Assembly: GCA_031276075.1 (NCBI GenBank)
Contig: JAISNU010000042.1
Span: 1-55,837, forward strand
Direction of reading: 5' to 3'
Length of the DNA: 55,837 nucleotides
Source of the DNA: Campylobacteraceae bacterium
GTDB lineage: Bacteria; Campylobacterota; Campylobacteria; Campylobacterales; Campylobacteraceae
Shown: positions 9,639 through 54,552 of the stretch, piece by piece
Position numbering within the stretch: the first letter of the stretch is position 1
How the letters are laid out: each line of letters begins with the position of its first letter
Notes under the pieces: generated by a model
Told to the model about the DNA's origin: nothing
Seen by the model: only the letters and a program-made list of their open reading frames with translations
Database searches by the model: none
Position numbers and translations under genes: made by a program

Positions 9639-9834
9639 GTCATTGCAAGGAGTGTGAAGCACGACTAAGCAATCCAGATACATGAAGCGTCATAAAAAAT
9701 ATTACAATGTAAAAACATGAAATAAATTAAATTTGGAGTTGATAATTTATACCTTTTGGGTATTTATATTTTTTGTATTGTTTCATTGAGTTTTTTGTTT
9801 TTCTTGGATTGCCGCACTTCGCTCGCAATGACGG
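9639..9834. mobile_element. MITE/BIME-like composite, core family 3 (core in inverted orientation)
   Basis: The roughly 125-bp core between arms 9639-9677 and 9805-9834 is the reverse complement of the cores at 20551-20753, 25260-25441, 30628-30812 and 48911-49117. Confidence 0.55.
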
Positions 9835-10082
9835 AAAGGCATGTTTTTTTATCTATTATTTTGTTGTTTCATTCCCTGCAAATGACACATGCACTTTGCT
9901 TGTTGCAAAAAATAGCAACTTTTTCCGTCATTGCGAGCTGACGAAGTCAGCGAAGCAATCCAGAAAAATATCTGTAAAAATAATAGTTTTTTAGTGCCAT
10001 ACATAGGCAAACAAAAAACAAAAACCTACTTCCAATACACATTATTTTCTATCACTCCCACGCGTTCAGCAATCCACTTTTT

Positions 10083-10220
10083 CCGTCATTGCGAGGCACG
10101 AAGTGCCGCGGCAATCCATACTTTAATAATAACAAAAAAGCGTCATTTTAAAAAAAATAGATAATTCTTTTTTATTTATAATTATGGATTGCTTCGCCGC
10201 AAACGGCTCGCAATGACGAA
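10083..10220. mobile_element. MITE/BIME-like composite, core family 1
   Basis: Forward arm (GGCAC-GAA-GTGCC variant), then core CTTTAATAATAACAAAAAAGCGTCATTTTAAAAAAAATAGATAATTC..., then reverse arm. Confidence 0.55.
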
Positions 10221-10612
10221 GGAGGAGCGTTTTTTTATTGCTTTGCCGTTTCATTTATTGCAATATTGGATTGCTTTGTCATATTGCGTATTCCTCGCAA
10301 TGACATAGAGGATAGCTGCATGATATAATATGGCAAATTGCTTCGTCGTGCTTTGCAAGCTTCGCACTTCTCGCAATGACAGAAGGGCGCATTTTCTTGA
10401 TTGCCGCGCAACACTTTTAATAGTGGAGGCAGTGAAGAAAGTAAAAATTCCGCGCATGCTACATATTACTATGCAACGCTTCCAACAACGGTAGGTGTTT
10501 TTTGGATTATTTTATTGTTTGATTTTTTTTGCTATTTTGGATTTTTACATTAAAATATACTTTTTAAAAAATTGCTTTCTATTTATAAATATGGCGGCAA
10601 TTTTTTCGTCTG

Positions 10613-11341
10613 TTATTTTTTTAATCTTCCGTATCCATTGCAGCCTTGCGGCAGTTTTAGTTTGCATGCCTTATCATAATATTCAAGCGCTTTTTTTGTA
10701 TTGCTTTTGACGCCTTTTCCTATCTCATGCATCAAGCCTAAACTCACGCAGCTTTCGGCGCTGTTTTGCGTGCAGAGTTTTTCAAAAATATCTATCGCTT
10801 TTGTCAAATCCTGTTTCGTGCCGTCTCCTTCGGCATACATGTAAGCCGTAGAATAGCAGCTGTTGATACTGCCGCCGTTGCAAGCTCTTGTGTAGAGTTC
10901 AAGCGCTTTAAAATAGTCCTGTTTTACGCCTACGCCCTGTTGGTACATATAAGCTAAAGAGTCGCAGCTGTCGGCATATTCATAATCGCATGATTTTTTA
11001 TAAAGTGCGGCGGCTTTTGCATAATCTTGCTCTACGCCCTTTCCTGTATCGTACATTACTCCAAGATTATGGCAGCCGTTTTCATTGCCGCTATTACATG
11101 ATTTTTCGAAAAATTCCAAAGCTTTTTTATAATCTTGCTCCACTCCCTCTCCCTCATTATACAAATAGCCAAGCACCGCGCATCCATCGCTGTTTCCGCT
11201 CTCACATGCGGTGCGGCTGAGTTCCGCAGTTTTATTCAAATCACCCTTTGCATAAGCCTCTTTGGCGTCGGCTATGGTATCTGCTTTGAGCATGAGCGTT
11301 AAAAATATGAATACGGCTGTAATTTTAAAAAAACTTTGCAT
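10613..11341 (-). CDS. Secreted Sel1-repeat, cysteine-rich protein (Helicobacter Hcp-like)
   Basis: Signal peptide MQSFFKITAVFIFLTLMLKA. Six tandem units of about 36 aa carrying the C-x-LG-x-MY-x-G-x-GV-x-QD-x-KA motif with paired Cys. Confidence 0.85.
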   Translation of the reverse strand: MQSFFKITAVFIFLTLMLKADTIADAKEAYAKGDLNKTAELSRTACESGNSDGCAVLGYLYNEGEGVEQDYKKALEFFEKSCNSGNENGCHNLGVMYDTGKGVEQDYAKAAALYKKSCDYEYADSCDSLAYMYQQGVGVKQDYFKALELYTRACNGGSINSCYSTAYMYAEGDGTKQDLTKAIDIFEKLCTQNSAESCVSLGLMHEIGKGVKSNTKKALEYYDKACKLKLPQGCNGYGRLKK

Positions 11342-11400
11342 TTTATCCCTTTGTTATGTGGTTTTTTTAGAAAATTTTATTATTATACTATTAAATAACT

Positions 11401-13050
11401 TTAAAAAACTTCACCCAATATCTTTTTTATTTTCTCTTTTGTTAAATTTTCCTCTTCCAAAAGCGTAGATATCAGCAAATCCAAAGGCTTTTTCATTCCT
11501 TCCAAAAACAGTTCCGTTTCTTTCAAAGCGTTTGAGAGGATATTTTCCATATCCTGCGCGGCAGGAAGCATTCTTTCGCCCATAGCGTACTTTTCTACCA
11601 TTTCATTTGCCATTTGTCTGGCTTTGGCTAAATCTTCGCTTGAATTTGAATATGTTTCATTAAAATAAATTTTTGAGGCGGCAATGCCGGCAAGAGCGAC
11701 TTTTATTTTTGTAATAATTTCGCTTTTAGACTCAATCTCTCTGTCCAACTCTTTTGCAAAATTACCCACAAGCGAAATTTTGTCAAAATCTATATCAAAC
11801 CAATAAGCGCACAAAGCTTTTGCGGCTTGATACACCGCTTGTATGTTTTTCTCTTTTTCGGAGTAGCTTGCAAGCCTTTTTTTGCCAAGCAAAACCTTAT
11901 CGCGCACAGCCAGAAAATCCTCCGTCTCAACTCTTTTGCCCCCACGCCTTAGCGCATTTATCGCGGCTTCATTGACCAAAGCGGAAAGCGCTGCGCCGCT
12001 GAAACCAACGCTCATTTTGGCAATTTCATTTATTTGGACATTATGATTTTTGTCGGCAAGATATGCAGTTATTATCTTTTCTCTATCATGTAAATCGGGC
12101 AAAGAGACAAAAATCCGCCTGTCAAATCTGCCTGACCTTAAAAGCGCTTCATCTATCATTTCAAGGCGGTTTGTAGCGGCTATAACGATAACGCCGGAGT
12201 TATCTTCAAAGCCGTCCATTTCTGCCAAAAGCTGGTTTAAAGTCGCTTCTCTCTCGTCGTTTCTAAATCCGCCTCTTGCTTTTCCAGCCGCATCAATTTC
12301 ATCTATAAATACAATTGACGGAGCGTTTTTTTTCGCCGTGGAGAATAATTCCCGCACCCTTTTTGCCCCCATGCCGACATATATCTGTACAAAACTTGCG
12401 CCGCTTTGGTAAAAAAACGGCACATTTGCTTCGCCTGCGACCGCTTTGGCTATCATTGTTTTTCCAACACCCGGAGGTCCGACCAATAAAACGCCGCGCG
12501 GAAGTTTGACGCCCATATTTTGATAAATAGACGGATTTTTTAGAAAATCTACTATTTCGCCAAGTTCCTCTTTGACGCTTTGAATACCTGCCACATCGGA
12601 GAATTTTAACTTTGAGACAGAAGGTACGATGATATTTGCCGTTTCATTTTCAAGCGCATTGTTTTTTGAAGGAATAAAAGGCTGAGATAGTGAAATTAAT
12701 TTGTTTTTTATATAATAAACAAAGCAAAAAACTGCTGCTGCCAACAATAAAAACAGTATTGCAAATTTGCCGATACCGCTTTCTTTATCCACGCTAATCG
12801 GCACAGAAGACATAAGTTCAGATATATTTACGCCGTCTTTGGCAACAGAGAAAACGCCTTTGTTGGTATAGAGTATAATTTCGCCGTTTGATATTTTCGC
12901 ATTTTTTATATGTTTGTGCGTCAAAAGATTGTTATAAAAGTGCAAATCTACCGCCTTTGGAGATTTAACGAACATGTATACCGTTAATGCCGCTAAAATA
13001 GTAAAAAGTACAATGACCGTTTGTAATTTGGTCGGTTTAAAAAATTGCAT
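11401..13050 (-). CDS. Membrane-anchored FtsH-like AAA+ ATPase lacking the HEXXH protease site
   Basis: Two TM segments. GPPGVGKT (Walker A), IVFIDEIDA (Walker B), SRH TNRLEMIDEALLRSGRFDRR. At the position of HEAGH the sequence reads AVYQAAKAL. Confidence 0.85.
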   Translation of the reverse strand: MQFFKPTKLQTVIVLFTILAALTVYMFVKSPKAVDLHFYNNLLTHKHIKNAKISNGEIILYTNKGVFSVAKDGVNISELMSSVPISVDKESGIGKFAILFLLLAAAVFCFVYYIKNKLISLSQPFIPSKNNALENETANIIVPSVSKLKFSDVAGIQSVKEELGEIVDFLKNPSIYQNMGVKLPRGVLLVGPPGVGKTMIAKAVAGEANVPFFYQSGASFVQIYVGMGAKRVRELFSTAKKNAPSIVFIDEIDAAGKARGGFRNDEREATLNQLLAEMDGFEDNSGVIVIAATNRLEMIDEALLRSGRFDRRIFVSLPDLHDREKIITAYLADKNHNVQINEIAKMSVGFSGAALSALVNEAAINALRRGGKRVETEDFLAVRDKVLLGKKRLASYSEKEKNIQAVYQAAKALCAYWFDIDFDKISLVGNFAKELDREIESKSEIITKIKVALAGIAASKIYFNETYSNSSEDLAKARQMANEMVEKYAMGERMLPAAQDMENILSNALKETELFLEGMKKPLDLLISTLLEEENLTKEKIKKILGEVF

Positions 13051-14302
13051 AATTTCCCTCTTTTTTTGGTTCGTATTTATTCACGCTAATCCACTTTCCG
13101 TTCAAATTTTGCGCCGTTTTAATAAAAATTCTATTATAAAACTGGTCAAATCCCGTAAAAAATCCCTCTTTTTGTTCTTCTATCAAGATTTTCAAAAGAG
13201 CTTTTTTTTGTCTGAAAAGAAAATTATTTTGCGCGGTTACCGCCTGAAGCTCTTTTAACCTTTTTTTCGCGCTCTTGCCGTCAACGCTTTGTTTCATTGA
13301 AGCTGAATGCGTGCCGTCTCTTTTTGAATAACAAAATGCATGCAGATGCGTTAATGGGAATTTTTTAAAATTCTCAAGCGCATTCTGCCAAATCTCTTCG
13401 CTTTCTCCCGGATGCCCCGTAATAAAATCAGTTCCAAGCGCAAATCCCAAAGACGAAAGTTCTAAAAAAAGTTCCAAATCTTTTTTGACGCTGTTTCTGC
13501 GCCTCATGATTTTCAGCATTTGCTCGTTTGTGTGTTGAAGCGCGATATGCAAATGCTTTTCAAGCCAGCTTTCTTTAAGTATCTCTTTAAAACTTTCATC
13601 AATCTGCACAGGTTCAATGCTGCCCATACGGACCCTTTTTACTCCATTTACGGCGCCTATTTTTTGAAGCAAATTTCCAAGCGTAACGCCGTTTTCCTTG
13701 CCGTAACTGCCGATATTTGTACCGGTTAGAACAAATTCGCCAAAACCGTTTTGCGCGAGTATTTTTACCTGTTCTATAATTTTATTTTCATTTTGGCTTC
13801 TTGCTTTGCCTCTTGCATGCGGAATGATGCAGTAACTGCAAGCGAAATCGCACCCTTCTTGTATTTTGATAAAGGCTTTGCTTTTGTTATGGTAGTTGGA
13901 TACGATATTTTTATCAAGATGCGTTAAAACGCCAATGTTTTTAAACGGCTCATGAGAGGAAAGCGCTGCGTTGATATTGCACTTTTCGGAATGCCCCAAA
14001 ACGCCGAATACCTTTTTTTGATTATACAGTTCGCTGCCGCGCGTCGGCGCTCCGCATCCTACAAAAATGATTTTTTTGCCTTCTCTGTTTTGTTTGGATA
14101 TATAATTTCGCACGCCGCTGTCTGCGCCGTTTGTTACCGTACATGAGTTTACTACGATAATATCGGCATACAGTTCATTGTCTGTTACTTCAAAATCTTT
14201 TAATGCCTCTATCATCATTTGCGTATCGTAAATGTTTGTTCTGCACCCAAATGTTTTAAAAAAAACTTTTGACTTCAAAGATTCACTCACCAATTTCTCC
14301 AT
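13037..14302 (-). CDS. Radical-SAM methylthiotransferase, MiaB/MtaB family
   Basis: N-terminal FKTFGCRTNIYDTQ (UPF0004 Cys). Radical-SAM CDFACSYC. 421 aa. It overlaps the downstream FtsH-like start by 14 nt. Confidence 0.8.
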   Translation of the reverse strand: MEKLVSESLKSKVFFKTFGCRTNIYDTQMMIEALKDFEVTDNELYADIIVVNSCTVTNGADSGVRNYISKQNREGKKIIFVGCGAPTRGSELYNQKKVFGVLGHSEKCNINAALSSHEPFKNIGVLTHLDKNIVSNYHNKSKAFIKIQEGCDFACSYCIIPHARGKARSQNENKIIEQVKILAQNGFGEFVLTGTNIGSYGKENGVTLGNLLQKIGAVNGVKRVRMGSIEPVQIDESFKEILKESWLEKHLHIALQHTNEQMLKIMRRRNSVKKDLELFLELSSLGFALGTDFITGHPGESEEIWQNALENFKKFPLTHLHAFCYSKRDGTHSASMKQSVDGKSAKKRLKELQAVTAQNNFLFRQKKALLKILIEEQKEGFFTGFDQFYNRIFIKTAQNLNGKWISVNKYEPKKEGNYAIF

Positions 14303-15848
14303 GTTTAACTTTCGGAGCCTGCTTCAAGTTCAGCGTCTGTGTAGGATACGCTATCATAATGTCGTCTTCTTTATTTACGGCGTCTATTATTTCACCGCTC
14401 AAAGTGCTTCTAAGCGCAAGCGCAGCGTAAGAGTTCGTCATATACCATACATGTATCGTAAGCCCATGCGGCTCTATAAATGAAAATATTTTCGGTTCTA
14501 CATTTGTATTTTTCAGATTGTATTTTTGTCTGAGTTGATTTAACTGCTTTCGCGCTATTTCCGTGTAGCCTTTTGAATATTTTTTTGTAATTTCCTTGAT
14601 GAGGTACATCGCTTTTTTATAATTGGAATCAAACGAAATAGTGATGTATATACCGTCCCATACAGTTTTTAGCGTTTCATGAGTGTAGTTTGAAATAAGC
14701 GTTGTAAAGATAAAATTGTTCGGTATAAACACCACTCGCCCCGCGCGCTTGTTTTCAAGATAAGTCGTAAGCGTTACATCTTCCAAAATAGTCATTCTCA
14801 TCAGCGATATATCAACTATATCGCCTACATACGAAAGTCCGTTTTGACAGACTTTTATTCTGTCTCCAACGCTGAAACTGCGCCCGAATGTTATAACGCT
14901 CCAGCCTAATATATTCATAAACATGTCTTTCATGGCAATGGCGATACCGGCTGACGCAAAACCCAAAACCGCAACAAGGTAAGTCATATTTTCAATATAT
15001 GCAAAAAGCAAAATCAGAATGATAATCGTAATGCTCGTGATATTTATCACTTTATTAACGATATAGCTTCGTTCGTTTGCCGACATGAAGCGCTTTGAGA
15101 AGAGTTTCAGCAAAAACGATATAAGTATGATGGAGACAATGATAGTCAAAATGAATAGCGAATGTTTAGTTTCGTCCTCTATTGCGTTTGTTGCGCGGGT
15201 AACGGCTTCGTTTACTTTTCGCTCATAAATGGAAGCCGATGTCAAAACTATATCATAAGCAGAGTTAAATTCTCTGATTAAAGCTCGGTTGTTCTCCTGC
15301 AAAACAGCATATGATTCGCTGCTGTCAAGCTCAACAAGCGCGTCCAGTATCGCGTCTTTTTCCCGTAAATTGCCTATCAAAGCGTCCAAATCGCGCGAAA
15401 GTTTATTGTACCCTTCCAAATCCTGTTTAATCTTTTTTATATATGAAAATCCTGAAAATATGGCAAAAGGATTGCTGATAGAAGGCAGAGGCGGGACATC
15501 GGGAGATTTTAAAAGTCCTGAAAACGGAGCGTTTTGAAATTCGCTTAACTGCTCTATCTGGCTCTCCAAAGTGTCGCGCTTTCTTTGCAAATCATCAAGT
15601 TTTGCCAAAGAACTTTTATTGGTTGTGTTTTTAATTTTTTTTATCTCTTGAAGCACTGTTTCAAATTCGGACTGTTTTATTTTGTAAATATTATAATTTT
15701 CATGCCTTGTAAACCATATATTATTTTTATTGGCGCTGTCAATCAATTCAATTTTTAGCTTATAGTCGCTAATCATTTGCGCCGTCTCATTTGCGTTTGC
15801 GCCAATCGCGCCTGCCAAAAAAATCAAAATTAAAAATATCTTTTTCAT
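14283..15848 (-). CDS. Mechanosensitive ion channel family protein (MscS-like) with long periplasmic coiled-coil N-domain
   Basis: Signal peptide and TM cluster around residues 225-300. MscS beta-domain motif VGDRIKV...GDIVDISLMRMTIL...VFIPNN. Confidence 0.8.
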   Translation of the reverse strand: MKKIFLILIFLAGAIGANANETAQMISDYKLKIELIDSANKNNIWFTRHENYNIYKIKQSEFETVLQEIKKIKNTTNKSSLAKLDDLQRKRDTLESQIEQLSEFQNAPFSGLLKSPDVPPLPSISNPFAIFSGFSYIKKIKQDLEGYNKLSRDLDALIGNLREKDAILDALVELDSSESYAVLQENNRALIREFNSAYDIVLTSASIYERKVNEAVTRATNAIEDETKHSLFILTIIVSIILISFLLKLFSKRFMSANERSYIVNKVINITSITIIILILLFAYIENMTYLVAVLGFASAGIAIAMKDMFMNILGWSVITFGRSFSVGDRIKVCQNGLSYVGDIVDISLMRMTILEDVTLTTYLENKRAGRVVFIPNNFIFTTLISNYTHETLKTVWDGIYITISFDSNYKKAMYLIKEITKKYSKGYTEIARKQLNQLRQKYNLKNTNVEPKIFSFIEPHGLTIHVWYMTNSYAALALRSTLSGEIIDAVNKEDDIMIAYPTQTLNLKQAPKVKHGEIGE

Positions 15849-16891
15849 CGTTTAAAAATCTTTAAAATTTTTTTTACAATATCCTCGCTTATGTCGTCTC
15901 TCATGGTAAAATTTCCTATACCGTGCGGTAAAATGAATGTTATTTTTGAGTTAGCGCTCTTTTTGTCAAGCAAAAACGCTTCATAAAAACTATCAATATT
16001 TATTATTTTATATCTTGTCGGAAGCGAAAATTTTTGCAGTATTTTTTCTATTTTAAACGCTTCATCTCTTTGTAAAAGCCCTAAATTTACGGCAAGTTCA
16101 TTTGCCATTACTATTCCGATAGCCACCGCTTCGCCGTGCAAAAATTTATGATAATGCGTCTTTTGCTCTATTGCATGCGCGAATGTATGTCCGTAATTTA
16201 AAACCGCTCTGATACCGCTCTCCTTTTCGTCCTGCGCTACGATATCGGCTTTTATTTTTATACTTTTGGCTATTGCCTCTTTCAGGTTTGCTTCATTGTT
16301 TAAATCGCTTTTTTCAAGCCACCCGTAAAACTCTTTGTTAAACATTACCGCCATTTTGACTATTTCGGCAATGCCTGCGTTAAATTCTCTTTTTGGCAGC
16401 GTTTTTAAAAATTCGCTTTCACAGTAAACGGCTTTGGGCTGGTAAAATGCGCCTATTAGATTTTTACCAAAAACGGTATTTACGCCCGTTTTTCCGCCGA
16501 CGCTTGCATCTACCTGCGCTAAAAGTGTAGTAGGAATCTGTATAAAATCTATGCCTCTTTGGTAAATAGCCGCCGCAAAACCCGTCATATCGCCGACAAC
16601 GCCGCCGCCTAAAGCTATAAGCGTGGATTTTCTATCAAGCTTAAATTTGAAAAGCTTGTTTAAAATATACTCTATTGTTTGCATATTTTTATGTTTTTCG
16701 CCGTCTTTTATCACAACTTCGTAAAGTTCTTTAGCTTTTATCTTTTTTTTAAACGCTTTAAGATGAAGCGGCGCGACAGTCTCATTTGTGATAACGGCGG
16801 CTTTGCCCGCAAGCGTAATCTCTTTAAGTTCGTCTATAAATATATCATAACCGTAACTTTTGGATGCGGCAAATTTTATGGATATTTTCAT
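15845..16891 (-). CDS. aroB: 3-dehydroquinate synthase
   Basis: GGGVVGDMTGFAAAIYQRGI, VDASVGGKTGVN, LNYGHTFAHAIE, HGEAVAIG. Confidence 0.9.
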   Translation of the reverse strand: MKISIKFAASKSYGYDIFIDELKEITLAGKAAVITNETVAPLHLKAFKKKIKAKELYEVVIKDGEKHKNMQTIEYILNKLFKFKLDRKSTLIALGGGVVGDMTGFAAAIYQRGIDFIQIPTTLLAQVDASVGGKTGVNTVFGKNLIGAFYQPKAVYCESEFLKTLPKREFNAGIAEIVKMAVMFNKEFYGWLEKSDLNNEANLKEAIAKSIKIKADIVAQDEKESGIRAVLNYGHTFAHAIEQKTHYHKFLHGEAVAIGIVMANELAVNLGLLQRDEAFKIEKILQKFSLPTRYKIINIDSFYEAFLLDKKSANSKITFILPHGIGNFTMRDDISEDIVKKILKIFKR

Positions 16892-16931
16892 GCGGTTCCT
16901 AAATTTTGTATCTTGTGATTATACTTCAAAT

Positions 16932-18335
16932 TTACTCCAATATCGGCAAAAAGAGTTGATATTTATCATTTAACAGAAAATAGATGCGGTTTAAGTCTTC
17001 GGAAAATATAGACGCTATTTTTGATTTTGTGAAGGATTCGTAAAACGGCACAAACTGCAATATGTCATTCTCTTTTTTAAGATTAAATATGGGATTTTTA
17101 TCATGACTTTTTATAATCTCTATCTGTTTTTCATAAAGTTTTGCGATGTTTTCAAAATGTTCGGTTAATTCTTGATTTTCAATTTCAGGGTCAAAATCAT
17201 AAAATTGCACTTTCAAATTAAGCTGCGCTGATAAATCAAATATAACTGAAGAGTGTTTTTCTATATCATCTGTATTTCCGCTGAAAACTATGCCGTTTTT
17301 CAGATTTTCAAATGCTGCGCCTCCGATTTTAAATATTGGCGTTTGAGCGTTGAAAAGTATTTTTATATTTGTTTTGAAAAAAAGTTTATCTACTATGCAA
17401 AGCCCGATATTCAGGTGGTTTACATCATTTATATAAATACTTTCGGGCGAAAAGCTATAATAATCCGCACTAACATCTATATCATCTGAAGCAAGATTTT
17501 TCATGTGATTGAACATAAAAGAGTAAGTCGGATTTATGATTTTGACATATAATTTTTTAGAATTTAATTTTTCATGAAGATTTAAGGCATTTGCAAGCAG
17601 TGCCTCCATTCTTTCGTTACTCATGTTTTTCATATCTATAAGGCAGTAGATATTTGAGCCGAACGGCTGCGGAAATTGCCCAAGCTCTTTTTTGATGCTT
17701 TTATACACATCTTGCAATACATCGGGCGCGCCGACAATAAGAAGGTTGTCGTTTGGCTGTATCATAAGATTTGGTTTTGGTAAAAAAAGCGTACTGTTTC
17801 TGTAAAGTGCGGCGATATGCCACTTTTTTTGCTCAATATTTCCTAAATGTCTATAAACATACGAACTTCCTACGGGTACTTGTATATCCATGACTTCGCC
17901 CAAAGCAAGTCCTATATTTTGCGCAAATATCGGCGTATTCGGTACAAAATCAGCAAGGCGGAAAGCCACTATTTTGCGTGAATTGATGAGTTTAAGATAT
18001 TTATCTTCAAACGCAAGATCCCATTTATCCACAAGGTAAATCGGTACTTTTTTGTCGAACTGTCTTATCGTTTTATAAGAGCCTTCCGCATCTATTTTTT
18101 TGCTGACGGCAATGATAACCTGATAGTAGTCTTTATTCATGACGCCTGTCATTTTTTCCATACTTGTCGGGTCAAACGAGTGAATTTTGAAGCTTTCGGG
18201 GAATGTTATATCTTTAATCGTTTTCTTTTTATAGCAGACTACGGTATATTCATTGTTGTCGCTGGAAACGCTGACAACTCTTTCTAAAAAATATTTTGCT
18301 AAAATACCGTCCGCTATGATTAAAACTTTTTTCAT
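16932..18335 (-). CDS. Conserved hypothetical protein (possible N-terminal Rossmann/TrkA-N-like fold)
   Basis: 467-aa ORF in the position between aroB and tgt that is occupied by a conserved hypothetical in C. jejuni and H. pylori (from memory). Starts MKKVLIIADGILAKYFLERV. Function unknown. Confidence 0.6.
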   Translation of the reverse strand: MKKVLIIADGILAKYFLERVVSVSSDNNEYTVVCYKKKTIKDITFPESFKIHSFDPTSMEKMTGVMNKDYYQVIIAVSKKIDAEGSYKTIRQFDKKVPIYLVDKWDLAFEDKYLKLINSRKIVAFRLADFVPNTPIFAQNIGLALGEVMDIQVPVGSSYVYRHLGNIEQKKWHIAALYRNSTLFLPKPNLMIQPNDNLLIVGAPDVLQDVYKSIKKELGQFPQPFGSNIYCLIDMKNMSNERMEALLANALNLHEKLNSKKLYVKIINPTYSFMFNHMKNLASDDIDVSADYYSFSPESIYINDVNHLNIGLCIVDKLFFKTNIKILFNAQTPIFKIGGAAFENLKNGIVFSGNTDDIEKHSSVIFDLSAQLNLKVQFYDFDPEIENQELTEHFENIAKLYEKQIEIIKSHDKNPIFNLKKENDILQFVPFYESFTKSKIASIFSEDLNRIYFLLNDKYQLFLPILE

Positions 18336-18373
18336 GCACTCTCCAAAAAAATTAAGAGGATATTATAACTAAA

Positions 18374-19498
18374 ATGGAATTTCACATAGATAAAACCGAT
18401 GCAAACGCGCGCGCATGCACGATAAAAACGGCTCACAGCATAATACAAACTCCGGTGTTTATGCCGGTTGGCACTGTTGGCAGCGTCAAGAGTCTCGACG
18501 CGTGCGATATGGCGGAGATTTTAAAAGCTAATATAATTTTGGGCAATACTTATCATCTTTATCTGCGCCCGAACGATAAAGTGATAAAAAATCTCGGCGG
18601 ACTTCACGGCTTTACGAAATATAACGGCAGTTTTTTGACGGACAGCGGCGGATTTCAGGCGTTTAGTTTGAGCGATATTTCAAAAGCCGATGAAAACGGC
18701 GTGAAATTTAAAAGCCATATTGACGGCTCCATGCACTATTTTACGCCCTCCAAAGTGCTTGACATAGAGTATAACTTAAATTCCGATATTATGATGGTGC
18801 TTGACGACCTTGTGGAACTTCCATCATCAAAAGAGCGGATAAATCTATCCGTAAATAGAACGATAAAATGGGCAAAAGAGTCTATAGAATATCACATGAA
18901 TGCAAAAGAAAATGCGCGCGCGGCAGGACAAAATATCTTTGCGATTATTCAAGGCGGTGTTGATAAAGAGTTTAGAAAAAAGTGCGCCCTTGAACTCTGC
19001 CAAATGCCTTTTGACGGTTTTGCGATAGGAGGGCTTAGCGTTGGCGAAGAAAATGCTTTGATGTATGATACGGTGGAGTTTACGACTGCTTTTATGCCGC
19101 AAAATAAACCAAGATATTTGATGGGAGTCGGTACGCCTGAGGATTTGGTGGAAAATGTAGAACGCGGCGTTGATATGTTTGACTGCGTTATGCCAACAAG
19201 AAATGCCAGAAACGGTACACTTTTTACTGCTTTTGGCAGGATAAATATCAAGGGAGCAGGTTTTATCAACGACAATGAACCAATAGATAAAGAGTGCGAT
19301 TGCTATACATGCAGACGATATTCAAGAGCTTATCTAAATCATCTTTATCGCGCAAAAGAGCTTACATTTTTCCGTTTGGCAAGTCTGCACAATCTTCACT
19401 ATTATTTAACTTTGGCAAGGCAGATGAGAAGCGCGATTTTGGCGGGCGAATTTGCAAAATTTAAAGCGGAGTTTTACGCTAAAAGAACACATGAATAA
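18374..19498 (+). CDS. tgt: Queuine tRNA-ribosyltransferase
   Basis: [38 protein letters not shown], and the zinc site CDCYTC...H. Confidence 0.95.
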
Positions 19499-19931
19499 TC
19501 CTGCCTTTTTGCCCCAAAAGCAAAGCTGCTTTTGAAATACCCAAATCTTGCGTATGTGTTTGAATATTTGTGTATGGAGATGACAAAGCGGGATACATGT
19601 AAATAACGAAAGTAAGAATTGTATGGAATTTGGCGTGAGTGTCAAACCGCAAAAATATGCGGCCAAAACAGCCTCATAATGCCGTATTTATCGCTATTGT
19701 ATAAAATTTTCTAAAATAACATAATTATCGCTTTTGACACATACGAACGAAAATAAAAGTCGTGCGAAATTTGGCGCAGGAATGACAAAAAATAGTAATG
19801 ACGGAAAGAGTATATGCGTTTTTGCTTGTCATTTTATGTTTCTTTTCGCCATTTTTGCGGTTGAATTAAGAGCGAAGCGCATTCCTGAAACACTTCCTAT
19901 GCAAAAAGTTCGCATAAAAAACCATACTGTT

Positions 19932-20286
19932 TTGTTGAGTTAATAAGCGTTGTATTGAAATTTGGTTACGCTTGCAAACAAAGAAATAATTTCTTAGTTG
20001 AACCAAAACAAGCATTGTATTAAAATTAAATAAAGTTTGGAAAATAGAGTGCATTATCTGCATGAACCAAAACAAGCGTTGTATTTAAATTTGATAAAAC
20101 CTCTTAGAGGATTAACTTCGTCTTTCATGAACGCAATGGCGGGCGCGGTGGGCGCGGGCGGACTTGGTTAGGGGATTAACTTCGTCTTTCATGAACCAAA
20201 ACAAGCGTCGTATTGAAATTGTCTCCTCTTTTTGTAAAATAATAAGCGAATAACTCCATGAACCGATACAAGCGTTGTATTTCCCC
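19932..20286 (+). CRISPR. Degenerate orphan CRISPR-like array (6 units, 30-nt repeat, 34-37-nt spacers)
   Basis: Repeat consensus is CATGAACCAAAACAAGCGTTGTATTGAAAT. Copies: 19932-19961 (only the 3' 17 nt conserved), 19997-20026, 20061-20090, 20126-20155 (only CATGAAC kept, the rest replaced by G-rich sequence), 20190-20219, and 20257-20286 (3' end degenerate). Spacers are 35, 34, 35, 34 and 37 nt. The repeat has an internal palindrome (CAAAACAA-GCG-TTGTATTG) and ends in ATTGAAAT. No cas genes are in the window and the repeats carry many SNPs, hence the low confidence. Confidence 0.4.
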
Positions 20287-20306
20287 CGTCATTTTTACGC
20301 CTGCCT

Positions 20307-20440
20307 CCGTCATTGCGAGGAGTGTAACGACGAAGCAATCCATAATCATGAATAAAACAATTATTTAGTTCCCTGCAATAAACTCTTTTTGTTATTGTAA
20401 GGTATGGATTGCCGCGACACTTTGTGTCTCGCAATGATGA
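20307..20440. mobile_element. MITE/BIME-like composite, core family 2 (short variant)
   Basis: The core ATAATCATGAATAAAACAATTATTTAG...TTATTGTAAGGTA aligns with the 3' part of the family-2 cores. It appears to lack the segment between two CAATCC direct repeats. Confidence 0.5.
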
Positions 20441-20550
20441 AAAAAAATGTCATTACAAAATTCTGTCATTGCGAGGAGTGCGAAGCACAACGAAGCAATC
20501 CATAACTGCGCATAAGACAAATTTCCGTTTTTACAGGAATAACAACCTCT

Positions 20551-20753
20551 GTCATTGCGAGCTTACGAAGTCAGCGCGGCAATCCAGAAGAATAAAAAAA
20601 TCAACAAAACAATACAAAAAAATCCAAATATTCAAAAATATAATTATCAACCAAAAATTTAAATTATTTCATATTTTTTTTAATTGTAATATTTCGATGT
20701 TTATAATACTTCGCGTATTTGGATTGCTGCGCCGCAAGCGGCTCGCAATGATG
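20551..20753. mobile_element. MITE/BIME-like composite, core family 3
   Basis: Forward arm, then core AATAAAAAAATCAACAAAACAATACAAAAAAATCCAAATATTCAAAAATATAATTATCAACC...TTATAATACTTCGCGTATT, then reverse arm. Confidence 0.55.
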
Positions 20754-20776
20754 AAAAAAACTAAACCTCCTCCCTT

Positions 20777-20936
20777 CCGTCATTGCGAGGAGTGTAACGA
20801 CGAAGCAATCCAGAAATAATATAAAAACAATCCATAATCATAAACAAAGGCAGTTATTCATTTTTCTAAAATGGTGCTATTTCATTATTGTAAAATATGG
20901 ATTGCCGCGCCAATTATATTGGTTCGCAATGACGGA
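20777..20936. mobile_element. MITE/BIME-like composite, core family 2
   Basis: Forward arm, then core AAATAATATAAAAACAATCCATAATCATAAACAAAGGCAGTTATTCATTTTTCTAAAATGGTGCTATTTCATTATTGTAAAATA, then reverse arm. Confidence 0.55.
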
Positions 20937-21173
20937 GGAAGTGCTTTTTGCTTCATTATTTTTTTCTACAATGACAAAAAAAGAACTTCTATGAAAGGTA
21001 TAGATTGCTTCGTCCTACCACGCTTCGCTCGTAGTCCTCGCAATGACGGAGAAAAATTGTCATTACAAAATTTCATCATTGCGAGCTGACGAAGTCAGCG
21101 CGGCAATCTAGTTATTGCTATAAATGAAATGGCGACGCAATCCGCACTTTTCATCATGTAAGCGTCCCCTTCT

Positions 21174-21308
21174 GTCATTGCGAGGAGTGCGAAGCACAAC
21201 GAAGCAATCCAGAAAAACAGCATAAAAACAATCCATAATCATAAATAAAAATAGCTATTCATTTTTTTAAATGATACTATTTCATTATTGTAAAGTGCGG
21301 CAATCCAG
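21174..21308. mobile_element. Core family 2 composite, right arm replaced or truncated
   Basis: Same core as 20777-20936 and 54395-54552. It ends ...TTGTAAAGTGCGGCAATCCAG, a forward-arm 3' half, instead of a reverse arm. Confidence 0.45.
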
Positions 21309-21417
21309 AACCTAAAAAGGCAAAAATATTATTGATAATATAAAGAGTGTCGATTTTAATCGTAATTTATCCCTTTTTTGATAAAATCGCAGCTTATCTA
21401 CTTTCAAAGGAAAAATT

Positions 21418-46963: not shown

Positions 46964-46997
46964 GTCATTGCAAGGAGCGTTAGAGACGAAGCAATCC
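46964..46997. repeat. Solo forward hairpin-repeat arm 11 nt after the radical SAM stop
   Basis: GTCATTGCAAGGAGCGTTAGAGACGAAGCAATCC. Confidence 0.85.
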
Positions 46998-47116
46998 GAA
47001 AAGAAAAACAATCCAAAACATACAAAAAAACTGCAAAAATATTTTATCTACCTTGATTTTAGCTTTGGAATTGATTAAAATAATATTCTGTATAAAAAAA
47101 TATTTAAGGAAATATA

Positions 47117-47629
47117 GTGAAAACAGTCTTAAAGTTATTAATCAGTACAGTACTGCTTGGCAGTTTAGCTTTTGCCAATGATTTTGGTGAAGCTTTTAAA
47201 GCTTATGAAAAAGGCGATTATAAAAAAGCCTCCGAACTTTTTAAAAAATCATGCGATGGGGGAGATGCCGGGAGTTGCGGTGCTTTAGGATATATGTATG
47301 AACAAGGCAAAGGTGTTAAGCAAGACTATTTTAAAGCGGCAGAACTTTATAAAAAGGGTTGCGATGGAAGAAATACTTGGAGCTGCGGTAATTTAGGATT
47401 AATGTATGAATACGGCAAAGGTGTTAAGCAAAACTATTTCAAAGCTGTTAAACTTTATAAAAAAGGTTGCGATGGAGGAAATGCTGGGAGTTGCGGTAAG
47501 TTAGGAGTTTCTTATGAATCAGGCAAAGGCGTGAAAAAAGACATAAATAAAGCTCTTGAATACTACGGTAAAGCGTGTGATTTGAAAGAGCAAAAAGGGT
47601 GTGAAGATTACGCGAGATTGAAAAAATAG
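47117..47629 (+). CDS. Secreted Sel1-repeat, cysteine-rich protein (Hcp-like), 4 repeats
   Basis: GTG start after AAGGAAA. Signal peptide. Repeats C.GG.A.SCG.LG.MYE.GKGVKQ.YFKA..LYKK. Confidence 0.85.
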   Translation: MKTVLKLLISTVLLGSLAFANDFGEAFKAYEKGDYKKASELFKKSCDGGDAGSCGALGYMYEQGKGVKQDYFKAAELYKKGCDGRNTWSCGNLGLMYEYGKGVKQNYFKAVKLYKKGCDGGNAGSCGKLGVSYESGKGVKKDINKALEYYGKACDLKEQKGCEDYARLKK

Positions 47630-47670
47630 CAATATTTGAAAGTAATTGCTGTTGTTTTATATATTTTTGT
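47628..47670 (+). terminator. Weak terminator-like hairpin plus T-rich tail
   Basis: AGCAAT (47628-47633), 11-nt loop, ATTGCT (47645-47650), then GTTGTTTTATATATTTTTG. Confidence 0.35.
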
Positions 47671-47697
47671 TCTCATATAAAGCGCATGTATCCGCTT

Positions 47698-47771
47698 TGT
47701 CATTCCCGCGGCTGAACGACAAGTTCTGTGAAGCGCATATCGTGAAATTGCGGCAAGAATGCGGCAATCCA
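47698..47771. repeat. Expanded forward-type repeat arm just upstream of the HIT gene
   Basis: TTTGTCATTCCCGCGGCTGAACGAC...GAATGCGGCAATCCA. Confidence 0.6.
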
Positions 47772-47799
47772 AAAGAATTTGAAATTTTTAGGAGTTTTG

Positions 47800-48332: not shown

Positions 48333-49312
48333 GAGCGTTCGGCAATCCACCTTTTCATCATTGCGAGGAGTGTAGAGATGAAGCAATCCAAAACACATCT
48401 CACTTCGTTATTACGAGCTGACGAAGTCAGCGCGGCAATCTACGCCTTTCATTACACAAGTTCTCTTTTTAATTATTGCGAAACACAAAGTGTCGTAATA
48501 ATTCAGAAAATGCCTGTTCCTCCGTCATTGCGAGCCATTGAAAACGGCGCGGCAATCTATATAAAATAAGACAGTAATAATGACCAATTTCACCATTGCA
48601 TGAAATTTTCCAGCTCCGTCATTGTGAGGACTGCGAACAAAGCGTGGGCAGGATAAAGCATCCGTCATTGCGAGGAGCATTAGCGACGAAGCAATCCATT
48701 AAGACGCTTGCGTTTTTATTTTTTAACCTAAGGGTTGAAAATTGAAATTCAAAGTTTGTGCGAATAAAGAAAAATTCTGGATTGCCGCGCTTCGCTCGCA
48801 ATGACGGAATGGAATTCCTGCGCCTTACCTTGTAAGTTTATCGTTTGGTAGAGAGAATGACATAAGAAGGGATATGAATGGCAGAAAAGGAAAACGGGAA
48901 TCCATTTTTTTCATCATTGCGAGGAACGCAGAGATGAAACAATCCAGAGAAATAAAAAAATTAACCAAGCAATACAGAAAATCCAAATATCAAAAAATGT
49001 AAACTATCAACCCCAAATTTAATTTTTTTATTCTTTCTATTACAATATCTTGATGTTTTATAACGCTTCGCGTATCTGGATTGCTTTGTCATACTGCGTA
49101 TTCCTCGCAATGACGGAGAGGCGTGTTTTTTTGGTTGTGAATTTTTTGCTGTACTTATAATAATTGGATTGCTTTGTCCTGCCGCGCTTCGCTTGCACTC
49201 CTCGCAATGACAAAAGGATAAATTGCTTCACTTTTTTGTTTTCATACAATGATAGAAAGTTGGTTTTTGCCGCTTCCTTACAATGACAGAGAGAAATCGC
49301 GGGAATGACAAA
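48333..49312. repeat. Hairpin-repeat island H (about 13 arms)
   Basis: Forward arms at 48355, 48405, 48470, 48522, 48616, 48661 and 48911. Reverse arms at 48778, 49076, 49163, about 49270 and about 49300. Confidence 0.9.
48911..49117. mobile_element. MITE/BIME-like composite, core family 3
   Basis: Core AGAAATAAAAAAATTAACCAAGCAATACAGAAAATCCAAATATCAAAAAATGTAAACTATCAACCCCAAATTTAA...TTTTATAACGCTTCGCGTATC lies between inverted arms. Confidence 0.55.
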
Positions 49313-52144: not shown

Positions 52145-52474
52145 TTACCCTCTCGGAGCAAAATAGATAATAAAAACGCCGATTAAAACTATAAATATGC
52201 CGATTGCGTCATATCTGTCTGGCAAAAAACCGTCAAATTTCATGCCCCAAAGTACAGACATTAAGATAAAAATTCCGCCGTAAGCCGCGTAAACTCTTGC
52301 AAAATTTGAAGGCTGCAAAGTTGCCATAACTCCGTAAAGTGCAAGTATAATCCCGCCCAAAAGCCCGTAACTCCAATGCTTGCCGCTTCTTAGCCAAAGC
52401 CAGATAAGATATCCGCCGCCTATTTCGCAAAGTCCCGCCAAAAAGAATATGGATAATGTTTTTACAGCCAGCAT
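52145..52474 (-). CDS. ynfA: YnfA (UPF0060) family small membrane protein
   Basis: 109 aa. CEIGGGYLIWLWLR, RVYAAYGGIFI. Aligns by eye with E. coli YnfA. Confidence 0.8.
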   Translation of the reverse strand: MLAVKTLSIFFLAGLCEIGGGYLIWLWLRSGKHWSYGLLGGIILALYGVMATLQPSNFARVYAAYGGIFILMSVLWGMKFDGFLPDRYDAIGIFIVLIGVFIIYFAPRG

Positions 52475-52480
52475 AAAATT

Positions 52481-53932
52481 TTAAAACTCTTTTAAAGGTA
52501 CATAACCAATATCTTCTATAAGCGCCTGCCCTTGTTCGCTCAAAAACCAATCAATCAGTTTTTGTCCTTCATGAGAGATATTTTGCGTGCTTACGATGTA
52601 AAATTCAGCCGTGAACGGATATGCGCCGCTTTTGATATTTTCAATGTTTGGCTCTATATCCTCAATGCTTAAAAGTTTAATATTTTCGCTTTCATTCATA
52701 ACTGTTGCGTAATATCTGAACGAATATCCTATCGCGTTTTTGGCGTTTCTGTAATCTGCAACTCCTTCTATCATGCCGCCCATACTGCCGTAAAATTCCT
52801 CTTTTATCGGTTCTGTAAACGGCGTATCTTTCATGACATATTTTTGCATGGCGGTTTGAGAACCTGAATTTTCATTGCGCTGAAATGCCAATATCTTTTC
52901 ATTTTCTCCGCCAAATTCACGCCAATTTTTGATTTTGCCCGAGTAGATATCTCTGATATTTTGCACGCTTAGCGAATTTACGGGATTGTTTTTATTTACC
53001 AAAAATACAAAAGCTTCTTTGCCAATCGGCGTTAAAGTAAGTTTTACGCCTTTATCTGCGGCGTTTTGCAATTGTTCATCTGAGGGAGCGGCGGCAAATA
53101 TAAGTTCTGCTTCGCCGCCGATAAGATTTTCATAAGCATGCGGCGTTGTTGAGCAGCCAAGATAGTCATACTTGTTTTCAATCTTAGGATACAAGGCTTC
53201 GTATGCGGAGTAAAATATCGGACAAAGCGCGGTTGCGCCGTCAATTTTGGCGGCATTATATTCAAATTTTAAAGTTGGCTCGCCTCTTAAAGGAGTATAG
53301 TTTTCATATTTGCTCCACTCTGTAAAACTTTGAAGTTTGATTGTATTTAATGGTAAAAACATGGAGTTTCTGTACACACATTGAACTGCGGCGGCAAGAG
53401 CCAATATCAAAGTTACGAAGATTAAAATTTTTAAATGTTTATCAGGTTTTAACAATCCTTTTTTCCAAAGCGCCAAAGCAACTCCCGCGCCGAATCCGCC
53501 ATAAACTATGATTTGCACTATGAAGGTATATATTGGCGTACCGCTGAATGCAAAAACAAAATTGATAATTAAAAACAAAGGATTTGAAAAAAGAGCAATC
53601 AGATTAAAAATCTCGCTTGAATATTGCCACCCCGATAAAACAAAAGCTAAATTCATGCAAAAAAAGGCGTATATCGCAAGTGCGAAAATCGCAAAATATG
53701 CTGCGTAATCCATCTTATTTATGAATTTTTTACCCCAAAAATATCCAAGATATATAAAAGGCAGCAGCAAAATAACGCAGCATATAACAGTTTCGCTAAT
53801 CTCCACCCAATCGCTATCTCCGCCGATGCCGATACTCAATATAAGCATATACAATAACCCTGTTGCATGTGCGAGCAGCGGAATGCATAAAAACAGAGCC
53901 ATATAAACGCTTGTAAATATTTTTTTTAGCAT
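52481..53932 (-). CDS. Polytopic membrane domain fused to a PstS/PBP-like-2 substrate-binding domain
   Basis: The first 190 aa or so contain 5-6 hydrophobic helices. The C-terminal domain has NIRDIYSGKIKNWREFGG, ENSGSQTAMQ and AIGYSFRYY, typical of PstS-family binding proteins. Confidence 0.7.
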   Translation of the reverse strand: MLKKIFTSVYMALFLCIPLLAHATGLLYMLILSIGIGGDSDWVEISETVICCVILLLPFIYLGYFWGKKFINKMDYAAYFAIFALAIYAFFCMNLAFVLSGWQYSSEIFNLIALFSNPLFLIINFVFAFSGTPIYTFIVQIIVYGGFGAGVALALWKKGLLKPDKHLKILIFVTLILALAAAVQCVYRNSMFLPLNTIKLQSFTEWSKYENYTPLRGEPTLKFEYNAAKIDGATALCPIFYSAYEALYPKIENKYDYLGCSTTPHAYENLIGGEAELIFAAAPSDEQLQNAADKGVKLTLTPIGKEAFVFLVNKNNPVNSLSVQNIRDIYSGKIKNWREFGGENEKILAFQRNENSGSQTAMQKYVMKDTPFTEPIKEEFYGSMGGMIEGVADYRNAKNAIGYSFRYYATVMNESENIKLLSIEDIEPNIENIKSGAYPFTAEFYIVSTQNISHEGQKLIDWFLSEQGQALIEDIGYVPLKEF

Positions 53933-54180
53933 AATTGTTCCTTAGCTTGCTGTAGAGGTTGTTATAATACCCAAAACCGCATTAAAAAGTCAAAAAGAAA
54001 CGACTTTTTTATTATTGCGAACAGGTCGCGGCAAAAATCTGTTTTTTCGTCATTGTGAGCCATTGGAAACGGCGCGGCAGAAATCTGGTCTTTCATAATT
54101 GTGAGCTTCAACTTTTTTTCAAGTTCAGAGTAGATATTCTTCTCTTTGTCATTGTGAGCTTGCGAAATCAGCGCGGCAAT

Positions 54181-54412
54181 CTGGAAAATAAAAAGATAAA
54201 ATAATTCATTCCTCTCCATCATTGCGAGGAATACGCAGTATGACGAAGCAATCCAGAAAACCAGCTGCTCTGCCGCTAAACCTTTTTTACTGTATATATT
54301 CCCTTTTTCGTCATTGTAAGACATGCAGTATTGTGGCGTTCCAGAAAAACACCCTTATATTCTTATACCACATAGCAAAGTTCACACACTCCTTCGTCAT
54401 TGCGAGGAGTAT
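54181..54412. repeat. Copy 1 of an approximately 232-bp direct segmental duplication inside island I
   Basis: Near-identical to 54784-55014 (offset 603 bp), with only a handful of substitutions. This is visible as the two near-identical spurious ORFs at 54222 and 54825. Confidence 0.9.
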
Positions 54413-54552
54413 GGCGACGAAGCAATCCAGAAAATAGCATAAAAACAATCCATATTCATGAACAAAAGCAGCTATTCATTTTTCTAAATGATAACCATTT
54501 CATTATTATAAAGTATGGATTGCCGCGGCACTTCGTGCCTCGCAATGACGGA
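54395..54552. mobile_element. MITE/BIME-like composite, core family 2
   Basis: Core AAAATAGCATAAAAACAATCCATATTCATGAACAAAAGCAGCTATTCATTTTTCTAAATGATAACCATTTCATTATTATAAAGTA lies between inverted arms. Confidence 0.55.

Follow-up and report, generated by a model that had tools for sequence, protein, structure and literature searches.

Previous work has defined a superfamily of CGTC-tagged repetitive extragenic palindromes (REPs; Di Nocera, De Gregorio and Rocco 2013, BMC Genomics 14:522; PMC3733652) that carry an unpaired CGTC tag (often TGTC, with CCTC as a further variant), stems beginning with A/T pairs and a CCA tail. These REPs occur mostly as head-to-head (HH) dimers with the tags outside, frequently as heterodimers, with conserved HH spacers of 20–100 bp, and they sit between genes in convergent or unidirectional order and now and then lie in frame within a gene (PMC3733652). 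Within this superfamily, CGTC-1 has been equated with Neisseria dRS3 and with the Rickettsia palindromic element RPE-6, and CGTC-4 with RPE-4 (PMC3733652). In Neisseria, RS elements of 50–150 bp fall into more than 100 families and have dRS3 inverted repeats on either side (Bentley et al. 2007, PMC1797815), and the resulting Neisserial intergenic mosaic elements (NIMEs) cluster into arrays with a regular GC wave and have been proposed as the sites of a recombinase carried by phages (PMC1797815). Here we describe a repeat landscape of this kind in a 55,837-nt contig (JAISNU010000042.1, hereafter “the window”) of a Campylobacteraceae bacterium, where inverted hairpin “arms” bracket conserved AT-rich “cores.” We are confident that the arms are CGTC-tagged REPs and that the composites they form are HH dimers with conserved long spacers, clustered into arrays like NIMEs and the bacterial interspersed mosaic elements (BIMEs) of E. 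coli.

The REPs of E. coli belong to a GTAG-tagged superfamily, with short linkers and a cognate REP-associated tyrosine transposase (RAYT). To our knowledge, only E. coli BIMEs are known to be bound by IHF, gyrase and Pol I. An earlier note on the window had listed 13 composites in three core families (F1–F3) and had read them as mosaics resembling either BIMEs or miniature inverted-repeat transposable elements (MITEs).

Tagged Arms and Head-to-Head Composites

Arms are far more frequent in the window than expected. On the two strands together there are 55 copies of the head GTCATTGCGAG (≤1 mismatch), whereas dinucleotide-preserving shuffles of the 55,837 nt give 0.76 ± 0.88; the tail heptamer CAATCCA is present 59 times (7.3 expected). 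Every arm falls within eight intergenic clusters (~3885–4400, 9622–10381, 19786–21344, 25163–26304, 30534–31040, 46964–47772, 48343–49309 and 54003–55150), which together sum to ~6.7 kb, i.e., 12% of the window. Base composition alternates along them, with 54.9% GC in the arms and 20.8% in the cores, compared with 38.8% in the window overall.

The 46 complete arms that could be parsed share one layout, which runs 5′ to 3′ from a pyrimidine-rich lead-in through C or T, GTC, ATTGCGAG, a variable insert of 9–28 nt and G(C/A)(G/A)GCAAT to CC. The base before the GTC tag is C in 35 of the 46 (CGTC) and T in 11 (TGTC), and in 42 of the 46 an A follows GCAATCC to give the CCA tail. Arms are 27–46 nt long, with an outer stem of 5–6 bp (ATTGC...GCAAT) in all complete arms, an internal loop and an inner stem of 2–5 bp; the stem opens with complementary A/T positions in every complete arm. 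The insert forms a small hairpin of its own, with a stem sequence that varies among arms while complementarity is kept (inner stems GCAC/GTGC, ACAC/GTGT, CTGAC/GTCAG, CCAAT/ATTGG, CCG/CGG, ATAC/GTAT and GTGC/GCAC), and its loop is usually a GNA triloop (GAA in 8 arms, GCA in 5). Tag and tail stay unpaired when the ...GCGCGGCAATCC-ended arms are folded as single-stranded DNA. Every arm has generic flanks, namely a pyrimidine tract on the 5′ side and a purine tract on the 3′ side, with no 3′ T-run.

Arms also stand solo, in tandem or paired round other spacers, and further degenerate arms are present, as are a second arm type (GTCATTCCCGC...) and a few ATTCCCGC-type remnants (25797–25820, 30906–30931, 47699 and 49309). 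The 46-nt arms at 21002–21047, 30628–30673, 48618–48663, 49166–49211 and 54634–54679 resemble an inner hairpin (GAGCGAAGCGYG) set within the loop of another arm (GAGTGC...GCAGGAC), so that one hairpin sits in another; the copies at 30590–30669 and 48580–48660 also have ~38 nt of 5′ flank in common (86% identity). The window repeats matched nothing in Rfam at gathering thresholds, and only chance hairpin-like matches appeared at E ≤ 1. A literal literature search for GTCATTGCGAG and CTCGCAATGAC returned unrelated primer sequences only.

All 13 composites of the earlier note are present, at coordinates that shift by 1–3 nt, and their three core families align. With the arms removed, cores measure 68–85 nt (F1), 64–90 nt (F2) and 95–135 nt (F3), with pairwise identities of 55–100, 67–83 and 71–84%, respectively, and each family is dispersed to 2–5 separate loci. 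With nhmmer, profile searches of the window return this set of copies and no others (E 1e-9 to 1e-29); armless cores, which the note had proposed to look for, did not turn up. Opposite-strand matches of F2 profiles to F1 cores (E 1e-5 to 1.5e-3) make it probable that F1 and F2 represent a single older family present in both orientations.

The proposed order of forward arm, core and reverse arm is found in 12 of the 13 cores, the exception being the copy at 21174–21308. These 12 HH dimers enclose spacers of 64–135 nt, and 11 of them are heterodimers, in that the two arms carry different stem variants. The note was thus right that these are not copies of one MITE with identical terminal inverted repeats: they are opposed REP-type hairpins with a small set of conserved linkers, and its BIME-like mosaic reading stands, with “NIME-like array of CGTC REP dimers” as the precise name. 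The F3 composite at 48909–49118 folds as single-stranded DNA into one long hairpin (−35.1 kcal/mol, z = −6.19), and no shuffle equals its fold.

Lineage-Specificity Among Relatives

The genes of the window are ordinary housekeeping genes. Its leucyl-tRNA synthetase (LeuRS) is 85–89% identical to proteins of metagenome-assembled genomes (MAGs) labelled Campylobacteraceae bacterium and 72% identical to that of Sulfurospirillum. The only sequencing run that contains the window sequence is a termite-gut metagenome; the host is an uncultured termite-gut member of the Campylobacterota.

Four relatives (L122–L125) were compared with the window round leuS. In three of them (L123, L124 and L125; 85–88% LeuRS identity) no convincing arms occur across 16–22 kb of syntenic DNA. 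The fourth, L122 (86% LeuRS identity), carries arrays at 1132–1600 and 21583–22454, but its arms are dRS3-like, i.e., CGTC-1 (GTCATTCCCGCGCAGGCGGGAATCC; ATTCCCGC-N4-GCGGGAAT), and surround AT-rich cores of ~120 nt that give no convincing alignment with F3. Because the sister genomes either lack arms or carry another CGTC arm type with other cores, the arrays of the window are lineage-specific and evolutionarily young. L122 also has a long-loop arm variant with a conserved ~30-nt insert (CCGAACGACAAGCGGAGCGCATATCGTGAGG), and this variant recurs in the window as a forward arm of the second type (GTCATTCCCGCG...GCGGCAATCCA; 47699–47772, + strand) just upstream of the HIT gene.

Junction lengths make the same comparison locus by locus. 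The kdsB/lnt junction spans 46 bp in L124 and 6.4 kb in the window (cluster D at 25163–26304, four genes and cluster E at 30534–31040), while the cdsA/lnt junction is 31 bp in L122 and 880 bp in the window (cluster E). Between the SPASM-domain and HIT genes there are 0 bp in L123–L125 but 826 bp in the window, taken up by a solo arm, a Sel1 gene and a long arm, and between the HIT and FGE-sulfatase genes there are 495 bp in L125 and 1300 bp in the window (cluster G, 48343–49309). The earlier note had looked to presence/absence polymorphism in related strains: this is seen at genus level, whereas no exact empty sites could be found, since the relatives are too divergent (~75–86% DNA identity in genes).

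Gene order differs as well. A four-gene phospholipid block (26369–30269; acyltransferase, hydrolase/methyltransferase, CDP-alcohol phosphatidyltransferase and cdsA) lies between clusters D and E, while L123 and L124 have kdsB immediately next to lnt, and in L122 the phospholipid block abuts lnt without repeats; by this comparison, synteny breakpoints coincide with arrays. A Sel1-repeat gene (47117–47629, + strand) is bracketed by the solo arm and the long-loop arm between the SPASM and HIT genes; the Sel1 gene of L123 and L124 is encoded on the opposite strand, downstream of HIT. The window copy of this gene contains three 108-nt internal repeats (47216–47539).

Arms Across Phyla, Phages, and Plasmids

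A scan of one genome per species with CGTCATTGCGAG-N8–34-GCAATCCA returned at least 120 stretches. Among the matches listed, arms are carried by Bradyrhizobium and other Hyphomicrobiales, sphingomonads, Rhodospirillales, Micavibrio, Rickettsia and Tisiphia, by Coxiellaceae, Legionellales, Solimonas and Azoarcus, and by MAGs labelled Bacteroidales, Muribaculaceae, Fibrobacter, Chitinispirillales, Lachnospiraceae, Eubacteriales, Melainabacteria and Absconditabacterales; these genomes span 32% to 72% GC. Nearly all of the listed matches consist of a forward arm followed 15–60 nt on by a reverse arm, with a total length of 67–120 bp. The same arm is found in termite-gut MAGs labelled Eubacteriales, Lachnospiraceae, Bacteroidales, Chitinispirillales and Azoarcus. 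One of the Eubacteriales MAGs (L056, 890–1030) has four same-orientation arms in tandem at a period of ~35 nt, including a perfect-hairpin variant (GTCATTGCGGGCTCCGACCCGCAATCCA), an arrangement not seen in the window.

Mobile replicons carry the arm too. It is present on at least 120 IMG/VR viral contigs, with 107 short HH dimers counted among the viral loci listed, and in the contigs checked these dimers lie in spacers between portal, capsid and terminase genes. Three IMG/VR contigs of alphaproteobacterial type (L216, L234 and L260) have a portal gene with a complete HH dimer on each side and 1291–1305 bp between the dimers; evidently, REP dimers populate the structural gene clusters of phages or of elements resembling gene transfer agents. 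Further copies occur in prophage records of Helicobacter canis and on megaplasmids of Novosphingobium, Methylosinus, Methylocystis, Aulosira, Halomonas and Legionella.

Word depth separates arms from cores within the termite gut. In the source run, and over contigs at least 90% alike, unique flanks have a depth of ~25, core bins 100–300 (4–12-fold) and arm bins 1,000–20,500. In a second termite run, from which this genome is absent, arm bins keep a depth of 300–1,000 while core bins fall to ~0–2, so the arms are common to other genomes of these communities and the cores are private to this lineage.

Organization of the Clusters

Arrays occupy all three convergent intergenic regions of the window and five unidirectional ones but neither of the two divergent ones. 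The composites described below are on the + strand except for one inverted F3 copy. Cluster A (3885–4400), between two + genes in unidirectional order, has arms in the order F F F F/R R R (F, forward; R, reverse) round a single F1 composite at 4090–4228, which consists of a forward arm at 4090–4121 (CCGC/GCGG stem), a core at 4122–4191 and a reverse arm at 4192–4228 (ATAC-GCA-GTAT stem). Cluster B (9622–10381) fills the convergent region between a sigma-54 activator gene (+) and a Sel1 protein gene (−); it holds the inverted F3 composite (9639–9832, − strand; core 9676–9805) and an F1 composite (10085–10217; core 10118–10185). Cluster C (19786–21344), between tgt (+) and an amino-acid kinase gene (+), has solo arms and four composites: the short F2 variant (20309–20438; core 20342–20405), an F3 composite (20551–20752; core 20586–20720) and two F2 composites, one at 20779–20933 (core 20812–20898) and the other at 21174–21307, which is without a reverse arm and whose core terminates in the inverted tail GCGGCAATCCAG.

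In the convergent region between kdsB (+) and the acyltransferase gene (−), cluster D comprises an F3 composite (25262–25438; core 25289–25396) and two F1 composites (25491–25633, core 25518–25601; and 25838–25989, core 25873–25957) whose cores are 100% identical while the inner hairpin of the left arm differs. Cluster E, between cdsA (−) and lnt (−), contains an F3 composite at 30628–30809 (core 30674–30768). In cluster F (46964–47772), the solo forward arm at 46964–46997 (+ strand) follows the SPASM-domain gene, 11 nt past its stop codon. Between the convergent HIT (+) and FGE-sulfatase (−) genes, cluster G holds the F3 composite (48913–49114; core 48946–49077) that folds as a single long hairpin, and cluster H (54003–55150), between a PstS-like gene (−) and a cyclophilin-like gene (−), holds an F2 composite at 54396–54549 (core 54429–54516).

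Two of the clusters contain recent duplications. The tandem duplication of ~350 bp in cluster D (25440–25790 vs 25787–26110) has copies that differ by an 8-nt indel in the inner hairpin of the left arm and by a 39-nt spacer indel. In cluster H, a 237-nt segment (54170–54406) is duplicated at 54773–55009 with 97% identity, and arms contain three of the four ends: the right end of both copies falls just past the GTCATTGCGAG head, and the left end of one copy lies in the 3′ half of an arm. A nested-insertion model, with bracket-balanced orientations, is not claimed, as FF, FR, RF and RR adjacencies are roughly equal in number.

The suggestion in the earlier note that the F3 core carries a promoter is currently unsupported. 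The motif concerned, in the F3 copy of cluster B, is TTGATA at 9740–9745 followed after 17 nt by ATTTAT (to 9768); its −10 part is a poor match that the other four F3 copies do not conserve, and in our reading of the core alignment a better conserved TATAAA/TGTAAAT box lies on the other strand. Sigma-70-like sites are not enriched in cluster C (9 vs 6.8 ± 2.9 expected), and four of the five F3 copies lie in convergent regions or in regions with flanking genes on the opposite strand; F3 copies mostly face the 3′ ends of genes. A search for RNA runs that contain the region found none.

Repeats also give rise to open reading frames (ORFs). Those of 100–136 aa that overlap them (3945–4301, 20409–20819, 25075–25380, 25897–26241 and 53962–54324) consist largely of repeat sequence and have no Pfam match; they look spurious, and gene callers are likely to yield them as false proteins. 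A CRISPR array was rejected as an explanation of the arms, which are inverted and hairpin-forming and whose intervening sequences are themselves repeated. Separately, a ~30-nt direct repeat ((C)ATGAACCAAAACAAGCGTTGTATT...) has four copies within 19991–20290 (starts 19998, 20062, 20191 and 20258; spacings 64, 129 and 67), where none is expected by chance; GGATTAACTTCGTCTTTCATGAAC is present twice in the same region. The region gives a weak Rfam match to CRISPR-DR3 (E 0.59), and a bin with one copy of the repeat has a word depth of 3,763 in the source run vs ~25 for unique DNA. This repeat may be a CRISPR-like remnant or another high-copy repeat.

Origin of the Arrays

We favor, as rather probable but far from certain, an account in which the composites are non-autonomous selfish units that spread in trans and were then remodelled by duplication and by exchange within the arm hairpins. 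The arm hairpin would be recognised in single-stranded DNA by a trans-acting enzyme, leaving no target duplication. Two tag-outward arms with their spacer constitute a doublet that can form one long hairpin and resembles the REPINs (REP doublets forming hairpins) of Pseudomonas. A few AT-rich spacers of 65–135 nt (F1/F2 and F3) would be copied along with their arms to several loci, with units settling where harm is small, i.e., downstream of genes and beside or inside earlier copies. Local duplication, together with exchange at breakpoints inside arm hairpins, would then remodel the arrays, and we propose that such exchange accounts for near-identical cores with different arm variants. One reason for heterodimers to persist may be the instability of perfect long palindromes. 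The anatomy, family identity and genomic distribution of the repeats, their absence from sister genomes, the lack of target-site duplications and the breakpoints inside arms are observed directly, while mobility in trans, action on single-stranded DNA and the enzyme itself are inferred. Target-site duplications, which the earlier note had suggested as a check, are absent: across the 12 composites the summed best direct match is 3 nt, compared with 1.0 ± 1.5 when flanks are permuted.

Several points weigh against this account. No dedicated transposase has been found for CGTC REPs (PMC3733652), and the window has no transposase or recombinase domain. A regular-expression search for HUH (Y1) transposases over all ORFs of the window and of the arm-bearing loci listed (at least 120) found one IS200-like gene among those loci, flanked by GTAG-type and not CGTC REPs. 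Insertion boundaries, and hence transposition as such, are not demonstrated, there being no exact empty site, and arrays could grow by recombination alone. As arms are far more abundant than cores, the copied unit may be the arm and not the composite. Finally, the ...GACGAAGCAATCC-ended arms fold poorly under nearest-neighbour DNA parameters; their design (G, GA, stem, GNA, stem, GA, C) suggests that tandem G·A pairs stabilise them, which is our own reading and not the output of a tool.

The IS200-like gene lies at 7140–7800 of a Bacteroidales termite-gut MAG locus (L104) within inverted GTAG-type REPs, a typical REPtron, and a CGTC HH dimer (3453–3522) stands in the same 8-kb stretch, so the two REP superfamilies coexist there. 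With its GTAG REP flanks, it was rejected as a candidate mobiliser of CGTC arms. Arm-bounded genes in viral contigs, also considered as mobilisers, turned out to encode portal, capsid and terminase proteins, and gene-sized elements bounded by single arms contained no transposase. A metagenome scan with the right end of F3 (ATAACGCTTCGCG-N2–6-GRATTGC) gave 34 matches, all of them chance occurrences in unrelated, mostly coding DNA, and no further F3 copy or parent element.

The alternative that survives best, though we think it clearly the less probable, is recombination of the kind proposed for NIMEs: arrays would build through repeated recombination of chromosomal arms with arms on incoming DNA, AT-rich cores would be spacers kept for their physical properties, and array-flanked genes would be exchanged as cassettes. 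Architecture and GC wave match those of NIMEs, for which recombinase sites have been hypothesised (PMC1797815), the duplication breakpoints lie inside arms, and the supply of arms on at least 120 viral contigs, in H. canis prophages and on megaplasmids suits the model, as do the arm-flanked gene blocks (26369–30269 and Sel1 at 47117–47629) positioned differently from their counterparts in relatives. Yet the relatives are too distant, at ~75–86% DNA identity in genes, for these rearrangements to be tied to the arms, and the viral-contig arms, in the contigs checked, merely sit between structural genes. No recombinase gene was seen in the window or adjoining arms in the loci inspected, and the presence of core families at 2–5 chromosomal loci is more easily explained by within-genome copying.

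We consider it unlikely that the arrays are functional 3′ elements that act as RNA or DNA to end or stabilise transcripts or to organise supercoiling downstream of genes, a role that has been put forward for E. coli REPs and BIMEs. The restriction to convergent and unidirectional regions, often near stop codons (e.g., the arm at 46964, 11 nt past one), is what such a role would give, the same location bias is reported for CGTC REPs (PMC3733652), and the hairpins are stable. However, sister genomes carry the same genes entirely without arms in the syntenic DNA compared, and no essential function can thus be attached to them. The pyrimidine and purine tracts that flank the arms come without a 3′ T-run, cluster C shows no excess of terminator-like sites (1 vs 1.6 ± 1.4 expected), arrays of up to 1.5 kb far exceed what a terminator needs, and no Rfam family corresponds to them.

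Classical MITEs, i.e., deletion derivatives of an insertion sequence (IS) with a DDE transposase whose terminal inverted repeats would be the arms, are very improbable, since the inverted termini round a short non-coding core and the several dispersed copies per family that recall them are outweighed by the lack of target-site duplications, by termini that usually differ within one copy, by arms that stand solo or in tandem and reach depths hundreds of times those of cores (1,000–20,500 vs 100–300), by conservation of the same arm in genomes of 32% to 72% GC with short unrelated spacers, and by the failure of the metagenome scan and the viral loci to yield a parent IS or any longer element with these ends.

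A bolder and decidedly speculative reading is that the arm belongs to a REP system now moving between phyla in the termite-gut community, on phages and plasmids, by means of an enzyme that cuts and rejoins within the arm hairpin. It draws on the word depths of arm bins, which attain 8,000–20,500 in the source run and 300–1,000 in the second termite run, and on the range of termite-gut MAGs with the same arm. Were this so, the exchanged module would run from one hairpin to the next and would thereby produce chimeric arms, heterodimers and breakpoints inside arms. Finding the arm-cutting enzyme would then answer how CGTC REPs, dRS3/NIMEs and RPE-4/RPE-6 spread, a question open since 2013.

Comparison With Known Repeat Systems

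The repeat unit and its architecture are already known, and since this landscape is placed in a described family it should not be reported as a new class of element. What is new is the clade of the host, together with long spacer families that are very AT-rich, the contrast between sister genomes, the breakpoints inside arms and a hint of community-wide sharing in termite guts. These findings extend CGTC REPs and NIME-like array architecture to uncultured termite-gut Campylobacterota, and the young, lineage-specific arrays make this clade a good natural experiment for the mobilisation of CGTC REPs, dRS3/NIMEs and RPE-4/RPE-6. There is also a practical side, as the repeats that fill 12% of the window and generate spurious ORFs appear to fragment short-read assembly as well, given that source-run Logan contigs over cluster C are only ~120–190 nt long.

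With CGTC REPs the window shares the CGTC/TGTC tag, the A/T start of the stem, the CCA tail, HH heterodimers, conserved spacers, a convergent or unidirectional location and the lack of a flanking transposase. The arm core (GTCATTGCGAG...GCAATCCA) is identical in taxa named by PMC3733652; Bradyrhizobium, Rhodopseudomonas, Micavibrio, Novosphingobium aromaticivorans (plasmid pNL2) and Rickettsia are common to that study and to our arm matches, and on pNL2, which belongs to a reference strain of PMC3733652, the window-type arm stands as an HH heterodimer directly past a stop codon. The host differs, in that PMC3733652 covers Proteobacteria (mostly alpha), Chlorobi, Bacteroidetes, Spirochaetes and Thermotogae, with no mention of Campylobacter or Sulfurospirillum. 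So does arm size, as our arms are bipartite and 27–46 nt long whereas an 8–9-bp stem with a 4–5-nt loop is tabulated in PMC3733652, with larger loops allowed in Bradyrhizobium. Spacers here are very AT-rich and at the long end of the range (64–135 nt), and clustering is strong, whereas PMC3733652 calls it rare outside Neisseria and Wolbachia.

Rickettsia RPE-4 and RPE-6 are likewise CGTC REPs (PMC3733652) but differ from the window arms, all of which are intergenic. An RPE-like in-gene insertion outside Rickettsia was seen in a Bacteroidales termite-gut MAG (WQWI01000025.1; L064, 5290–5322), where a window-type arm lies in frame inside a purL-like ORF of 1296 aa (residues ...SCRHCEGESPKQSRLRQ...). 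The Pseudomonas REPINs of Bertels and Rainey resemble the window composites in having an inverted REP doublet as the unit, a long hairpin, no target-site duplication and a non-autonomous nature, but they have GTAG tags and a single-copy RAYT gene flanked by the same REPs, and no RAYT is seen in the 56-kb window. E. coli BIMEs share REPs in alternating orientation, a small set of conserved linkers and an intergenic position 3′ of genes, yet consist of GTAG-type REPs (Y, Z1 and Z2) with S, L, s, l and r linkers, unlike the CGTC tag and unrelated AT-rich cores found here.

NIMEs differ from the window in their repeat unit, which is the dRS3 sequence ATTCCC-N8-GGGAAT whereas our arms are mainly ATTGCGAG...GCAAT, in the number of core families (~3, i.e., 2–3, in 56 kb here), in host and habitat, and in their link to phage integration, with units that serve phage or IS110-type recombinases as integration sites, and to variable surface-protein genes, a link not seen for the arrays here. 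What the two have in common is hairpin units flanking 50–150-bp repeat families, long intergenic arrays (here up to 1.5 kb) of GC-rich units and AT-richer spacers, and a unit from the same superfamily, dRS3 being itself a CGTC-1 REP (PMC3733652). Of known array architectures, that of the Neisseria NIMEs comes closest, with E. coli BIMEs similar by analogy.

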